Under the pieces are notes generated by a model, which was given only the letters and a program-made list of their open reading frames with translations, did no database searches and was not told the origin of the DNA. Positions 37,988 through 53,534 of a stretch of 64,000 nucleotides of DNA are shown in pieces; the stretch's first letter is position 1; every line of letters begins with the position of its first letter. The DNA lies in the IMG/VR virus record IMGVR_UViG_3300017973_000001, positions 1-64,000 of that record; one strand, given 5' to 3'. A program made the position numbers and the translations under genes. This DNA is from a virus.

Positions 37988-37990
37988 ATA

Positions 37991-38019
37991 TTGACTATAA
38001 GCACATAATAGGCTATAAT
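37991..38019 (+). promoter_or_regulatory. SigA-type promoter
   Basis: TTGACT-N17-TATAAT. Confidence 0.8.
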
Positions 38020-38024
38020 GAAGG

Positions 38025-38122
38025 CCGACATACATAGAATAAAGTTCTCTTATTTTCATTGTCTTTGAAACATGCTTCTATGAAAAAATCCTTCTACTTA
38101 TGGTGGGTAGAGGGATTTTTTT
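38025..38122 (+). ncRNA. Candidate ~95-nt sRNA
   Basis: Near-consensus promoter, no ORF with RBS, terminator AATCCTTCTAC...GTAGAGGGATT-TTTT. Confidence 0.5.
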
Positions 38123-38264
38123 ATGGAAATAAAAATGACTCAAACCGGAGGGAATGAGCCATCTTTTGTAAGTAGTTATCGGTTAAAGCGATAACGCTAA
38201 TGAAAACTTCTACTAACTGTAGTTTAACCTAAAATATATAAGAGGTCAACTGGGGGAAAATAAC

Positions 38265-47114: not shown

Positions 47115-47906
47115 TTGTTACCACATCACATTCAACAAAATCTACAACAAAATAAACTATACTACTCAATGGATGAAGTTGAGAACATAATCAGAGCTAA
47201 AACTGACGCTGATTATTTGGGTGATGTAGTCATTGCAAACGAAAGTTTAATATGGCATGCAGTATACAAGTATGTTGGTAGCCCTAAATACATAACCCGA
47301 AATGGTGGCCTTGAAAAAGACGACATTCTTCAGTTAGGTCGCTTAGGTTTTATAAAAGCCGTTTATGCATTTGATATTAACCGTGGTGTCAAATTTAGTA
47401 GTTTCTCAGTGACGGCCATATTTAGAGAAGTACGTTGTTTTTTACGTGATAGCTCTAGTATTATTCGTCCTACACGTACTGCTAATAGCTTAATAAATAG
47501 ATTGCGTTCACTAGAATTGAAGTTAGGCTACCTACCCCATACATCTGAATTATCAGTGTTATTGGATGAGGATGAATCTAAGATTATTAAAGCATTATTA
47601 GTAGGTCAAAATATCAAATATTTGGACGAGCCAGTAAAAAGTAAGATTGAATTTTTGGAGATACCAATATCAATGACTGATAACTTATTGTCAGACATTG
47701 ATGAAGATACCATTCTTGATGAAGTGTATCTAAACAACATCACCGAAAAATTGGCTCAGAAATTGACTGACGTTGAAATGGAAGTCTTTAAAAATAGACT
47801 ATCCGGGTTGAATCAGACTCAAACTGCTAAAAAGCAAAACATATCTCAAATGCGAGTTTCTAGGATCACTAGAAAAATAGCTAAGTTAATTCGAGAAGAA
47901 ATGTAA
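47115..47906 (+). CDS. Sporulation-type (SigF/SigG/SigB family) sigma factor
   Basis: DDILQLGRLGFIKAVYAFD..RGVKFSSF, EVRCFLRD, Q.QTAK..ISQMRVSRI. Confidence 0.9.
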   Translation: MLPHHIQQNLQQNKLYYSMDEVENIIRAKTDADYLGDVVIANESLIWHAVYKYVGSPKYITRNGGLEKDDILQLGRLGFIKAVYAFDINRGVKFSSFSVTAIFREVRCFLRDSSSIIRPTRTANSLINRLRSLELKLGYLPHTSELSVLLDEDESKIIKALLVGQNIKYLDEPVKSKIEFLEIPISMTDNLLSDIDEDTILDEVYLNNITEKLAQKLTDVEMEVFKNRLSGLNQTQTAKKQNISQMRVSRITRKIAKLIREEM

Positions 47907-48069: not shown

Positions 48070-49512
48070 CTAGAAGACCTCGGAAGTATCTCCGAATGAC
48101 ATAGCAACCCTTACAAACTCAGTCACATTGTCAAACTTAGTCCTTATAGACCTTAGTGAATTTGCTAGGAAATCTGCTATTATCCCATTCAAATCATGTG
48201 GGTATAGATTTATCCCCTTTTTAACCAATGTTTTCACAGTTGAATAAGCCTCATCTTTTGTAAAGCTTAAGTCTTTCACTAACCGATTGCAAATATCCCC
48301 CGGATATTCCTTAACTACTTCTACTGCTTCAGCATTAGGTTTATTCTCAAGCCAATTATGGAACGGTATCTTGCCAGTGTATGGAGTCTCCACTTTAGGT
48401 TCCAATTCATCTTTTGCTATTTGGTTGGTTTTTTGATTACCAATTTCATTGTCTATGAACCTAGCAAAACAACTTCCAGGAGACGAAACTGCATTTTTAT
48501 ATTTATACTTCTTGTAGTCAATTAAAGTTTGTTGGACTACTAAGTTAGAAATCTCAGTATGCCTGTACACCTTATATAGCTTATTAAGTGCTTGTAGTAT
48601 CTGCCCTTCTGTAAACCCATTGTTAGACATTACTTGATAAATATTTTGATAACTTAAATTAGTTTGTAACACATTTAATATTTCTTCGTCATCATGCTTT
48701 TTCTTTGGTTCTATTTCTTGATTATATTCATATTCTGTTATAGGAGCCTTATCATGATGATTATTATATAGTGTATTACCATTATAAGTATGGAAAGTAA
48801 GTATGCTTATTAATAGGGATTCAATTCGTTGAACCTGGTCGCTTAACTCATTTGAACCCCCTATTTCTACTGAAGTGTTGGTATCACTAGGTTTTTCGGG
48901 AGGAGCTTCAGATTGAACTTCTTTTTGAACCCCTGGAATTTTGAACCCTTCAGCTTCAGCTAGGTCCTCTATAGTTATTCCGTTTTTACGCATAAGCTCA
49001 CGGATTTTATCTATTGGGCTAACTGCGTTTTTTAAGCGAGTAATTAGACTCTTTTTAGCCCCTTCAATACCGGATTTACGGTGTTTAACGTTAAGCTCCT
49101 TATGGTTGCGTACTTTAACAAGAGGTTTATTACGTAACTCATAATCCCCTAATGGATAGTTCTGAATTATAACGACTGTTTTAGGAGTTCCAGTTGTATG
49201 TTCATTGGATTTTACAAAGTCTACTAACCCGTAGTCATACATTATGTTTAAATATTTACGCATTGTGTTAGAGGCTATACCACGGATTCTAGCCAACCCT
49301 TTAATTCCGTATGTAATTCTTCCAACGTTACTCTCTTTAGTACGAGTAGCCATTGTATGTAGTTTACATAGTTCTAAGTAGACCTTGTCCCCTAATACGC
49401 CAATCCATTGGTCAATGCATGTATATGAATTAAACGGTATATATAATTCATTACGTTTACGTTTTTTCTGTACATCAATATCTATAATATTTTCTGCATG
49501 CGAAAAAGACAT
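48070..49512 (-). CDS. Plasmid-type replication initiator (N-terminal wHTH)
   Basis: DQWIGVLG..VY..L..LHT..., HTH GIKGLARIRGIASNTMRKYL...YGLV; long leader with countertranscript; next to parMR. Confidence 0.6.
   Translation of the reverse strand: MSFSHAENIIDIDVQKKRKRNELYIPFNSYTCIDQWIGVLGDKVYLELCKLHTMATRTKESNVGRITYGIKGLARIRGIASNTMRKYLNIMYDYGLVDFVKSNEHTTGTPKTVVIIQNYPLGDYELRNKPLVKVRNHKELNVKHRKSGIEGAKKSLITRLKNAVSPIDKIRELMRKNGITIEDLAEAEGFKIPGVQKEVQSEAPPEKPSDTNTSVEIGGSNELSDQVQRIESLLISILTFHTYNGNTLYNNHHDKAPITEYEYNQEIEPKKKHDDEEILNVLQTNLSYQNIYQVMSNNGFTEGQILQALNKLYKVYRHTEISNLVVQQTLIDYKKYKYKNAVSSPGSCFARFIDNEIGNQKTNQIAKDELEPKVETPYTGKIPFHNWLENKPNAEAVEVVKEYPGDICNRLVKDLSFTKDEAYSTVKTLVKKGINLYPHDLNGIIADFLANSLRSIRTKFDNVTEFVRVAMSFGDTSEVF
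48829..48947. repeat. Five TTGAAC(C/T) direct repeats inside rep (candidate iterons)
   Basis: Copies at 48829, 48852, 48913, 48925 and 48941, beside an AT-rich tract. Confidence 0.5.
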
Positions 49513-49683
49513 TATTATGCGATCCTCCTACAGAGTGGTCCCCAAAGAAAACCTCACACACACAACAACGTCTCTCTTTATCTATCTCTATATCTGTCTA
49601 TTTACCCATAGATTTATTAAAATTTATATTATATTCTATTAAAATATGTAATATTTTTTTAATAAAAAATGTACGGTAAAACC

Positions 49684-49712
49684 TTGCATACCCCTAATTT
49701 TATATGTATAAT
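49684..49712 (+). promoter_or_regulatory. SigA promoter for rep countertranscript
   Basis: TTGCAT-N17-TATAAT with extended TG. Confidence 0.75.
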
Positions 49713-49717
49713 GGGGT

Positions 49718-49800
49718 TATCAATATTGTTTAAGCGTTTTTATACGCTTTGTTGTTGTGTGAGTGGTGAACTTTGGACGGTTGAACCACTCTTTTTTTTA
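49718..49800 (+). ncRNA. Antisense (ctRNA-like) RNA to the rep leader
   Basis: Promoter, AAGCGT/ACGCTT stem, GAGTGGT...ACCACTC hairpin plus T8; antisense to rep 5'UTR. Confidence 0.65.
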
Positions 49801-49958
49801 TTTGATTAAGCACATAATACCATTGTCTAAAACGTTTGCATAGTCCCTATTTTAAATTTCCATAAAATATAAATATTTAGAACATTGTAAAATATACGGT
49901 AACACCATATAAATAAAGAGCTCCTAATGTGGGAGCTCTTTTTGTTTGTCGAAATGTT

Positions 49959-50243
49959 TTAGTATTTTATTCCGGTATACTGTCTAAAATTTTTACCTCC
50001 GTCTTTCATGTAAGTCTTTAATTTATTCATAAATTGTTCGTCCTGTAATGCAAGTTCGACAATAAATGCCTGGGCACTTCCTAAACTTCGATTACGTTTA
50101 CAACGTTCATTAAAACGGGGGTGGCGAAAATCAATGTTTTTACATACTTCCTCTAATGTAAAGAAATTCATACCAGTATAAGTACTAGTGACCCGTTCAT
50201 ATATTTCATGATTACCTTCATAAGTATGTTTCTTTTTAGCCAT
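49959..50243 (-). CDS. Hypothetical protein
   Basis: RBS GGGGGG. Confidence 0.6.
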   Translation of the reverse strand: MAKKKHTYEGNHEIYERVTSTYTGMNFFTLEEVCKNIDFRHPRFNERCKRNRSLGSAQAFIVELALQDEQFMNKLKTYMKDGGKNFRQYTGIKY

Positions 50244-50318
50244 AGTAAAAAGCCCCCCTTCTCTTTGTAAGAGTATATGAGGGCTTTTCCAATTTTAGAA
50301 CACAGAGCACACTAAAAG

Positions 50319-51029
50319 TTAGATTTCATCAAAGAATTTTGTAGTCCACGGTGAAGCTTCTTCAACTTCCTTACGGATCAACTCAGCTAACTCCTGGATT
50401 TCATCTTGTGCATGCGTACCTTTACGTCTCTTAGAATAAAAATCTAGTATTCCACGTAAGTTACCAGTCATTACAAAATTACATGAAGCTGACAACGGTA
50501 AAGCCATACGTGCTTTTTCTGCTGATACACCTAACTCGCGTAATTTATCATAAGCAACCTGGGACTGATCCATTGCGTCTAGGAAAGTTTCTAATGCCTC
50601 CCCTTCTAGACCGTCCGGAACAACAAATGACATTCCTTGAGATTTATCTTCGCTACCAAACTTTACATATCGCATACTTTGAACACTAAATGAGTACATA
50701 CGGTGGCGAGTAATCTGTCCAAGAAGAACTCTCGATACCCCTTCGACTGCAAATGTGTAGTTGTCATGTTCTAATGTACTAGTATGGCCACTACGTACAA
50801 TGTGACGAATTAAACGGTCAGATTCAGTTCCACCTTCCCCGTCTTTTGCTATTTCGCCAAAATATTTTCCCCCTTCAACCTCTACGATCTCAGTTGGTTT
50901 CAAGTGAGAATAACATGTACGAATTGCAGTTAGTGATAAGATTTCGCTATCTTTCACATTTCTATACTTAGCTAATTTTTTCCTAAATTTGTCGGATAAT
51001 TGTGTATGTGCTAGTAACGTGATTTCCAT
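50319..51029 (-). CDS. thyX: Flavin-dependent thymidylate synthase
   Basis: GHTSTLEH, RHRxxSFSVQSxRY, ARMALP, HAQDEI. Confidence 0.95.
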   Translation of the reverse strand: MEITLLAHTQLSDKFRKKLAKYRNVKDSEILSLTAIRTCYSHLKPTEIVEVEGGKYFGEIAKDGEGGTESDRLIRHIVRSGHTSTLEHDNYTFAVEGVSRVLLGQITRHRMYSFSVQSMRYVKFGSEDKSQGMSFVVPDGLEGEALETFLDAMDQSQVAYDKLRELGVSAEKARMALPLSASCNFVMTGNLRGILDFYSKRRKGTHAQDEIQELAELIRKEVEEASPWTTKFFDEI

Positions 51030-51108
51030 AATTCAGCAATTTCCCCTTTTCGTTCGACTATGTAGGTTAGACCTCACATAGTTCTTATACGAAAAAGAGA
51101 GACGTTAA

Positions 51109-51300
51109 TTAACGTCCCCTTTTCTTCATTCTCTTGCTGAGAGTTTTCATTACTATCACACACTCATCTGAACAGATGTAAGTAGCAAAATCATTATGAA
51201 TTTGGTAAGTGTGTTTACCACAAACACCACATTCCCCGGCTTGCTCTACATTGTAAGTCAATACTTCTGACTTGTTTTTTAATATAGCTTTATTCTCCAT
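51109..51300 (-). CDS. Small zinc-binding protein
   Basis: CGVC...CSDEC. Confidence 0.6.
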   Translation of the reverse strand: MENKAILKNKSEVLTYNVEQAGECGVCGKHTYQIHNDFATYICSDECVIVMKTLSKRMKKRGR

Positions 51301-51438
51301 AATGTACTGACCCCCTAGAATAAGTTAAGCCCCATTAAGGGGCCCCGGAAGAAAATAAAATCCACACATTAACTTATACTACTTAGTCAGCCTGGAAGTT
51401 AATTTTTATCATAAAATAAATTATTTTACGTTTTCTAT

Positions 51439-51468
51439 GTATAAAATATTATTCGTTTGGCAATACTA
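51439..51468 (+). promoter_or_regulatory. SigF(/SigG)-type forespore promoter
   Basis: GTATA-N15-GGCAATACTA fits the sigF consensus GYATA-N15-GGnnAnAHTR exactly. Confidence 0.75.
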
Positions 51469-51473
51469 ATAAT

Positions 51474-51660
51474 ACTGAAGAATGGTAACAAGTAAACTTT
51501 CTGAAGTGATCTGAGTTTGCTAATTGTTATTGGGTTATTATTTTGTTACCCTATTCCCTACCTAAAAATTTTTCTATCACTCCGTCCCCTCCTTAGACCT
51601 AAACTGCGTTATTGTGTGCAGAGCACATTAATGCATGGTCGAGAGGAGGAGGCTTTTTTA
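51474..51660 (+). ncRNA. CsfG-like sporulation sRNA candidate (~185 nt)
   Basis: sigF promoter; 5' stem GGTAACAA/TTGTTACC; pyrimidine motifs CCCTATTCCCT and CACTCCGTCCCCTCCTT; long terminal hairpin plus T-run; no ORF. Confidence 0.6.
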
Positions 51661-51696
51661 TTTTTATTCTATTAATATAGTAACCTATAAGTATAC

Positions 51697-51732
51697 AAAA
51701 ACCCCTTAAAGGAACATTCCTCTAAGGGGTTT
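51697..51732 (-). terminator. Terminator of the parMR operon
   Basis: AAAAACCCCTTA...TAAGGGGTTT. Confidence 0.7.
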
Positions 51733-51744
51733 ACTATTTTAATA

Positions 51745-52131
51745 TTAAGATAGACGGCCACTTATCATTTCGTCAGAAAATCTTTTTTCTAGCTCCTCAT
51801 TTTTACCAGTCTCTTTTTTAGGTATTTGAGGCTTAACTGGTTTTTGTGTCGGTGGCTTAATAGGTTTAGTCTTAGGTTGCTCCACTTCCTCCATAATTTC
51901 TATATCAGTATTGTTACTTAATATATTTTGGATAAAGTCATTATGATTATTCTTAATCTCAAAACCACGGTATTTTAACCCGTCATAGAGAAGATCACGG
52001 ACAAACTCACTCAACTCACCTTTAGGTAGGTTATCAAGAATTGACACTAGCTCTTTATCTCGTACACTTCTAAGTGAGAAAGAAAAGATTGGACTTCTTT
52101 TCCCACCGTCAGCAGTTTTTTGGTTAGCCAT
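51745..52131 (-). CDS. parR: ParR-like ribbon-helix-helix adaptor
   Basis: FSFSL...DKEL...ELSEFVRDLL; low-complexity C-terminal tail; directly downstream of parM. Confidence 0.75.
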   Translation of the reverse strand: MANQKTADGGKRSPIFSFSLRSVRDKELVSILDNLPKGELSEFVRDLLYDGLKYRGFEIKNNHNDFIQNILSNNTDIEIMEEVEQPKTKPIKPPTQKPVKPQIPKKETGKNEELEKRFSDEMISGRLS

Positions 52132-52145
52132 GATAACCCTCCTAT

Positions 52146-53204
52146 TTATGATTTTTTACGTGATTTTCCGTAAGTTTCTCTTGCAGAACGGTTAGCTAAT
52201 TTATGGTACCCACGAACACATGAGAATCTACCTTCATTAACGATTTCAGCTCTAGGGAAGTTTGCTTTTAATATTGGAGTTATGTACTTACGTAGTACGT
52301 CACAACCTCCCCCAGTAAGAATAATAGTGTCGATTTCACTCTTAATATGGATTAACTTTTTGTCGAGTTCACCTACTAAACTTTGAGCATGAATTTGATA
52401 ATTCTCCTCAACAATTTTTCTAATATCAGTATCATTTGAGATAAATCCGGATTGAACGTATTGTGGGATACGTGCAATATTTATGCTTTTACCATAATTA
52501 ATTTCAATGTCGCTTTGAATACCGAGCCACGCTTCATACATACCTTCGTTAAGCGTTGTATTAATTTCCGGGATTGGTGTAAATCCTCTTGAAGCAGTTA
52601 AATTCCATGTACGAGCGCCTAAATCAAATACTATAGTAATTTTTGATAATTCTACACTGTCGGTAACAGAGCCATCATCTTGCAGTAGATAATTAGCAGT
52701 AGTACCAAAAGCCTGGTCCGTTATGAATGTCTTTTTAATATTTATAGCTTTTTGAATAATTGTCCCGTCAGCTAAAGTTACTTTCATTTCATGTGGTTTC
52801 TCAGTAAGTTTTTTTAATAATGCTATACGTTCCGGTACATATTGTTTAACTGGTAAGCCCATTACTAGTACATCTATGTCATCTTGATCCGGACCATTTT
52901 CTGTTAATAGCGTTAGCATTGTTTTAAACAGTGGGTCAAAATCATTTGCAAAATTATGTTTATTTTCTACGCCTTGCCACTTAGCTTTAGGGTTAAGATT
53001 TTGTGCTCCATACCCTACTAGCTTTCTAATATCATCACCGTATTCTACAGTTATATGGCTATGAGGCTCACTATAATCTCCGTCAATACCATTGTCTGGT
53101 TTTGGTACGAATTTGTGTACAAAATTAGGTAAAAATATCTCTAAATCGCCCTTTTTTCCTTTGAAATCTCCAAAGCCATCATCAATCCCAAGCACATTAT
53201 ACAT
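52146..53204 (-). CDS. parM: ParM/StbA actin-like segregation ATPase
   Basis: GIDDGFGDFK, MGLPV, FDLGART, LTGGG. Confidence 0.9.
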   Translation of the reverse strand: MYNVLGIDDGFGDFKGKKGDLEIFLPNFVHKFVPKPDNGIDGDYSEPHSHITVEYGDDIRKLVGYGAQNLNPKAKWQGVENKHNFANDFDPLFKTMLTLLTENGPDQDDIDVLVMGLPVKQYVPERIALLKKLTEKPHEMKVTLADGTIIQKAINIKKTFITDQAFGTTANYLLQDDGSVTDSVELSKITIVFDLGARTWNLTASRGFTPIPEINTTLNEGMYEAWLGIQSDIEINYGKSINIARIPQYVQSGFISNDTDIRKIVEENYQIHAQSLVGELDKKLIHIKSEIDTIILTGGGCDVLRKYITPILKANFPRAEIVNEGRFSCVRGYHKLANRSARETYGKSRKKS

Positions 53205-53297: not shown

Positions 53298-53446
53298 CTA
53301 TAAAACTTATAAACTTTTTAATAATATGTTTTATTTTTACAATGAAAAAACTAAGAAAGTTTATAACATGTTATGAAAAAGTTTATAACATTTATGAACA
53401 TGTTATGAAAAGTTATAAACTTTTATGAATATATTCATAAAAACTA
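53298..53446. repeat. parC centromere-like repeat array
   Basis: AAAGTTTATAACAT x2, AACATGTTATGAAAA x2 and TTATAAACTTTT x2, immediately upstream of the parM promoter. Confidence 0.75.
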
Positions 53447-53534
53447 TTAACATTGGAGCTTTAAACCTACAAAATGCCTAACTAATACGTGGGTATATTG
53501 TCTAATCTAAGTTAGAAGTAGGGGAGGGGGTACT

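Follow-up and report, generated by a model that had tools for sequence, protein, structure and literature searches.

Among the described RNAs that resemble the locus analysed here, the C-rich base-pairing sRNAs of Firmicutes (RsaE/RoxS type) use exposed C-rich motifs for G-rich ribosome-binding sites and end in a 3' intrinsic terminator. Among the genes known from phages of spore formers are those for sporulation sigma factors and for a few spore proteins; a riboregulator linked to the sporulation programme is not known from phages. Sigma factors resembling SigF and SigG show enrichment in phages whose hosts form spores, and they are able to activate sporulation genes of the host (Schwartz et al. 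2022, PMC9429907); of the phage factors tested there, SigF-like behaviour was limited to a close homologue with 62% identity to SigF (PMC9429907). A phage gene under the forespore factor sigmaG is also on record, namely sspC of prophage SPbeta (PMC8270828). CsfG, a forespore sRNA, arises by transcription of the strand opposite to the orphan ylbH leader motif, Rfam family RF00516 (PMC3574147).

A preliminary description of a 64-kb stretch of viral DNA (the window) had proposed a phage-borne, sigmaF-driven, CsfG-like sRNA at its positions 51439-51660. After analysis of this region, we favour a new sRNA gene that stands alone on the plus strand, spans about 190 nt, would be read by forespore sigmaF/sigmaG, and would be like CsfG only in general design; we put the probability of this at roughly 40%. 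An exact strict promoter, unique in the genome and placed 6-10 nt before the first helix, argues for it, as do a plus-strand-specific fold, a plus-strand terminator, exposed seeds, and the lack of a credible ORF. The neighbouring par operon having its own terminator, the sigmaF-like sigma factor carried by the phage, and the infection of spore formers by its kin point in the same direction.

The Phage and Its Accessory Island

Virus record IMGVR_UViG_3300017973_000001 has a length of 109,430 bp with direct terminal repeats and a G+C content of 35%, and the window is its first 64 kb. In a search of sequencing runs, the sole run listed as containing the sequence was its source DNA, a peat metagenome, with no RNA run among the holders. 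Kin of the large terminase (TerL) with 61-69% identity were found in viral records of 100-113 kb and in one Bacillota MAG, and the protein is 51% identical to those of Brevibacillus phages Jenst and SecTim467 and Bacillus phage EZ-2018a; kin of this phage infect the spore formers Brevibacillus and Bacillus. The 109-kb phage is probably maintained in plasmid form by a Bacillota host that makes endospores.

The RNA candidate sits in a 444-bp gap (51301-51744) amid minus-strand genes, which form a block of about 5 kb (48070-53204) including a Rep-like gene (48070-49512) and thyX (50319-51029). On one side of the gap, and divergent from the RNA, lies an ORF of 63 aa (51109-51300, minus strand), Cys-rich and zinc-ribbon-like, with thyX downstream of it. 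On the other side, the convergent parM-parR operon consists of a ParR-like adaptor gene (51745-52131) and an Alp7A/ParM-like actin gene (52146-53204; Pfam ALP_N, MreB-like_C, and Alp7A_like_C), both on the minus strand. This operon has a separate intrinsic terminator outside the RNA, on the minus strand at 51692-51732 (inverted repeat 51699-51714/51717-51732, then TTTTTG), which we rate as strong and canonical given its 16-bp GC-rich stem and T-run. In a search among 5.8 billion proteins, the closest relatives of ParM displayed 41-45% identity, none exceeding 45% and one lying on a Solibacillus silvestris contig, and searches with ParM, ThyX, and Rep in viral or genome contigs revealed no close kin.

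Several structured or repetitive stretches surround these genes. Upstream of parM, positions 53300-53455 are densely filled with direct and inverted AT-rich repeats with units such as AAAGTTTATAAC and ATGTTATGAA, probably a parC-type centromere bound by the ParR-like protein; a second centromere in the gap was considered and rejected, since these repeats do not recur there. The leader of the 63-aa ORF/thyX operon, on the minus strand, contains a GC-rich hairpin (51327-51345) and a 22-nt inverted repeat (51307-51328/51369-51390, minus strand) covering the AGGGGG ribosome-binding site of the operon, and translational or attenuation control by the structures of this leader (51301-51440) is possible. 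In a scan covering part of the intergenic gaps, the 446-bp leader of the Rep-like gene (49513-49958) was strongly structured as well, more so on the minus strand (z -5.2), and a 277-bp gap between plus-strand genes (37988-38264) folded strongly on both strands (z about -5.8, mononucleotide shuffles), the latter showing no Rfam match at the gathering score.

Comparison with five TerL-related genomes revealed common genes up to and including the sigma factor gene, thymidylate kinase among them, and again from about 54.5-57 kb, while the segment 48070-54500 has no counterpart in any of the five. This segment comprises the Rep-like gene, a 94-aa ORF, thyX, the Cys-rich ORF, the RNA, parR, parM, and three small plus-strand ORFs. 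Hence an island of some 6.5 kb, accessory and specific to this phage, harbours the RNA; judged by its gene content (Rep, ThyX, ParM/ParR), it looks like a plasmid-maintenance island.

Predicted Fold and Terminator of the Candidate RNA Unit

The plus strand of 51474-51662 folds with a minimum free energy of -53.9 kcal/mol (z -4.80), which none of 200 shuffles equalled, against -37.8 kcal/mol (z -1.16) for the minus strand of the same 189 nt. G-U pairs make up 10 of the 57 pairs of the plus-strand fold; they explain the strand asymmetry and point to a plus-strand RNA. The 5' stem noticed earlier is present as part of a predicted three-way junction (51477-51574), composed of P1 (51477-51483/51568-51574), the P2 hairpin (51484-51531), and the P3 hairpin (51532-51551). 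On its own, this 5' domain reaches -20.0 kcal/mol on the plus strand (z -2.0) and -10.1 kcal/mol on the minus strand (z +0.6); most of the significance of the fold is carried by the 3' terminator hairpin (z -4.7).

That hairpin is predicted to be long and imperfect, 70 nt in length (51584-51653), with the arm CCCCUCCUU pairing with the arm GAGAGGAGGAGG; it reaches -33.9 kcal/mol on the plus strand (z -4.7) and -27.3 kcal/mol on the minus strand (z -3.1). It is followed at 51654-51668 by the U-run U6AU5AUU (T6 A T5 A TT in the DNA), completing an intrinsic terminator and bearing out the terminal hairpin with U-run of the preliminary description, and no T-run lies directly past the hairpin on the minus strand. 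A plus-strand terminator within about 5 kb of minus-strand genes is sensible only if plus-strand transcription begins nearby.

Two C/U-rich motifs had also been pointed out, and both are indeed there, but they are exposed only in part: in the first, CCC closes P3, and in the second, GUCCCCUCCUU forms the 5' arm of the terminator stem. What is predicted to stay open is a 16-nt C/U-rich junction strand, UAUUCCCUACCUAAAA (51552-51567, unpaired probability 0.91-0.99), and a 9-nt linker, UAUCACUCC (51575-51583, unpaired probability 0.88-1.00), which we regard as first and second candidate seeds.

These structures may also be read without any RNA gene. The whole 444-bp gap could be regulatory DNA, with a minus-strand promoter and structured leader for the zinc-ribbon/thyX genes, a further hairpin reinforcing the par terminator or blocking stray transcription, and a promoter match on the plus strand arising by chance. 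Promoter-like sites do occur on the minus strand (51496-51469 and 51437-51408), the leader carries the hairpin and the inverted repeat over the ribosome-binding site described above, strong folds were also seen elsewhere, in several further intergenic gaps covered by the scan, and the RNA is without conservation in the collections searched. The strand on which the structure lies speaks otherwise, since on the minus strand 51474-51662 shows no significant structure (z -1.2; 5' domain z +0.6) and the U-run past the long hairpin is on the plus strand only; the par operon, moreover, already possesses a canonical terminator. We regard a purely regulatory gap as unlikely, though as a serious alternative to the sRNA gene.

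Promoter and Sigma Factors

The exact sigF-type promoter reported earlier, GTATA-N15-GGCAATACTA, was recovered on the plus strand at 51439-51468, with GTATA as -35 element (51439-51443) and GGCAATACTA as -10 element 15 nt past it (51459-51468). From the -10-to-start distances of mapped promoters, transcription is predicted to start at 51474-51478, 6-10 nt past the -10 element, and the first helix begins at 51477. The strict pattern GYATA-N15-GGNNANAHTR has this one match on both strands of the 109,430-bp genome, with 0.3 expected from dinucleotide shuffles. In the whole genome it is also the only intergenic match, all other relaxed matches lying inside coding sequence. The strict motif is absent from the five related genomes, and in the six genomes together (this phage and the five related ones) no other canonical sigmaF-type promoter was found.

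In sigmaF promoters, a 15-nt spacing is usual and A or G at -7 is common (PMC5942855). Among the mapped sigmaF promoters of C. difficile, GTATA is the commonest -35 element, being that of spoIIQ and sigG, and the mapped -10 elements (Table S6) include GGTAAATACTA, GGGAATACTA, and GGATATACTA, with starts 6-7 nt downstream. The GTATA, the 15-nt spacing, and the G-led -10 element of our candidate agree with the mapped sigmaF/sigmaG promoters (PMC5942855; PMC3789822). By its sequence, the promoter is a very good match to the forespore sigmaF/sigmaG type, experimentally mapped promoters included, and in it sigmaF and sigmaG are not separable.

The chance expectation of 0.3 strict motifs per genome weighs against the sRNA-gene reading, and the argument from coincidence is a post hoc one. 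If the sigmaF-like motif were coincidental, the RNA could still be real and be read by housekeeping sigmaA, either while the carrier cell grows vegetatively or in the lytic cycle, as the evidence from structure and terminator is independent of the type of sigma factor. A sigmaA-like site, TTTACG-16-TATTAT, overlaps the sigmaF-type promoter at 51425-51452 and would place the start about 15 nt upstream. It is the weaker of the two sites, however, matching at 9 of 12 positions with a suboptimal 16-nt spacing, and such matches are common (8 found vs 4.7 expected in 1.4 kb), whereas a match of the sigmaF type is much less frequent, and this one sits exactly in front of the first helix. Transcription of the RNA by sigmaA, with the sigmaF-like motif as a coincidence, is in our estimation unlikely, though, like the regulatory gap, a main rival of the forespore reading.

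As stated in the preliminary description, the phage itself encodes a SigF-like sigma factor, more precisely one of the SigB/SigF/SigG family (47115-47906, plus strand; TIGR02980 4.5e-31, spore_sigF 8.5e-28, both below the curated cut-offs). Its best equivalog model is spore_sigF, with a score below the cut-off, and with 65 bits to sigmaF (PDB 1L0O chain C) it is only distantly sigmaF-like. It is kept in relatives without the RNA, with 57-59% identity in two viral records of 103-113 kb and 35% in a third. Because the phage sigma is distant from sigmaF and conserved in relatives lacking the RNA, the host sigmaF/sigmaG would be likelier than the phage sigma to read the promoter.

Antisense and Coding Alternatives

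An own promoter, the absence of an ORF, an own intrinsic terminator, and a strand-specific stable fold, as expected of a stand-alone sRNA gene, are all present in the sequence, which supports a plus-strand unit running from promoter to terminator without a credible ORF. The position of this unit would also allow for a cis-antisense RNA, pairing over its full length with par read-through or with an extended leader of thyX transcripts, and controlling its partner by cleavage of the duplex or by transcriptional interference. The RNA runs towards parR, with the two terminators only about 30 nt apart, and its promoter stands back to back with the candidate minus-strand promoters; yet the par terminator, with its 16-bp GC-rich stem and T-run, is strong, inspection of the sequence upstream of the RNA body gave no promoter on the minus strand, and the parC-like repeats (53300-53455) are not repeated in the gap. 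A cis-antisense function is in our view improbable.

The preliminary description had noted about 185 nt without an ORF, and the roughly 190 nt downstream of the promoter are indeed free of any credible one. The sole downstream frame is a 52-codon TTG frame (51517-51675), and a small hydrophobic protein encoded by it, for example a type I toxin, is very improbable: the frame opens with a hydrophobic stretch (MLIVIGLLFCYPIPYL), but its TTG start has no upstream Shine-Dalgarno sequence, it crosses the terminator hairpin and the U-run, and no homologue of it was found. A type I toxin-antitoxin pair was rejected likewise, with that frame lacking a Shine-Dalgarno sequence or a homologue and no overlapping convergent promoter pair being found.

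Comparison with CsfG and Search for Relatives

Since CsfG is the reverse strand of RF00516, a search with RF00516 on both strands is a direct test of membership in the CsfG family, and a search with the covariance model had been named in the preliminary description as the check on the claimed similarity to CsfG. At E ≤ 10, RF00516 matched neither 51250-51800 nor any other part of the 109-kb genome; among 14 control genomes, one exceeded the cut-off. In the 64-kb window, no match was found at the gathering score (50 bits). The claim of similarity thus fails with an empty search in region and genome, and the RNA is not a member of the CsfG family. A diverged CsfG homologue captured from the host, for which the promoter of sigmaF/sigmaG type and the C/U-rich stretches between helices, as in the description of CsfG (PMC3574147), could be cited, is extremely improbable in view of the absence of any RF00516 match in region or genome at E ≤ 10 with the control passed, the length of about 190 nt against a CsfG peak of 136 nt, and the lack of a similar RNA in about 150 sampled Bacillota genomes.

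Beyond RF00516, Rfam (window at the gathering score, region at E ≤ 10) returned only matches of the chance or terminator type, namely rli38, trpB, and His_leader, far below the cut-off. Comparison of the gap or of 10 kb by blastn with 50,697 phage records and 72,556 plasmids returned nothing, and exact or degenerate DNA patterns searched in viral and metagenome contigs gave only unrelated, chance, or low-complexity matches. A covariance model built from the single sequence of the RNA revealed no copy in the five TerL-related genomes, in three distant ParM loci, or in the related Bacillota MAG. Among 150 genomes of the class of this MAG, the model had one match of 24 bits, which was discarded as a terminator of the usual kind, located between msrAB and a gene for an ABC ATPase. 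In the collections searched (phage, plasmid, viral-contig, and metagenome sequences, the five related phages, and about 150 Bacillota genomes), the RNA is an orphan, and with no homologue found, covariation or conservation lends it no support.

Possible Mode of Action

If the locus is an sRNA gene of the proposed kind, the host sigmaF and/or sigmaG would make the RNA in the forespore of the sporulating carrier cell, with the divergent sigma factor of the phage as the less likely driver. The RNA may then act by base pairing, the exposed UAUUCCCUACCUAAAA and UAUCACUCC pairing with mRNAs of the host or the phage at ribosome-binding regions rich in G, like the C-rich sRNAs of Firmicutes; such an anti-Shine-Dalgarno action is what we infer from the design of the molecule. 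In a target scan of 159 translation-start regions of the phage, the native seed performed no better than shuffles of the same composition (best -29.4 vs shuffled mean minimum -30.7 kcal/mol), and antisense matches to the RNA within the phage genome did not exceed 13 nt. Any specific targets probably lie in the host.

Taken further, a plasmid-like phage would carry its own riboregulator wired to the forespore sigma cascade of its host and made only in the spore that entraps the phage genome, where it would modulate spore or germination mRNAs, or else hold the phage in a silent, maintained state up to germination. This wider scenario is tentative and, taken as a whole, doubtful. Synthesis of the RNA in the forespore, if it occurs, would give phages a means of acting at the RNA level inside the very compartment that shelters them through dormancy. 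As a single uncultured sequence without relatives, the locus is a good lead, and kinship with CsfG can be dropped.

Comparison with Known Systems

With CsfG of Bacillus subtilis, the candidate shares the organization as a stand-alone sRNA with a promoter of the forespore sigmaF/sigmaG type and C/U-rich unpaired stretches between helices (PMC3574147; PMC9147052), a likeness of design only, as set by the description of CsfG, which likewise has no known target. In comparison, CsfG has its peak at 136 nt (PMC3574147) whereas the phage RNA has about 190 nt, CsfG lies in the chromosomal ylbG-ylbH gap and the phage RNA in an accessory island, and CsfG is conserved across endospore formers, whereas the phage RNA is an orphan.

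Exposed C-rich motifs and a 3' intrinsic terminator are also what the phage RNA has in common with the RsaE/RoxS type, but it has no Rfam match to RsaE or any other family, its fold differs, and the scan of the phage revealed no specific target. The sigma factors reported for phages of spore formers (PMC9429907) have a counterpart 3.5 kb upstream of the RNA, although the one found here is distant from sigmaF and is kept by relatives lacking the RNA. The sspC gene of SPbeta offers a precedent for a phage-carried gene wired into the forespore sigma cascade of the host, with the difference that the element described here would be a non-coding RNA carried by a plasmid-like phage. Our literature search found no phage-borne forespore sRNA. 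Phage genes under forespore sigma factors and sigmaF-like factors of phages are thus already known, while a virus-encoded, compartment-specific sRNA would be a class not described so far.
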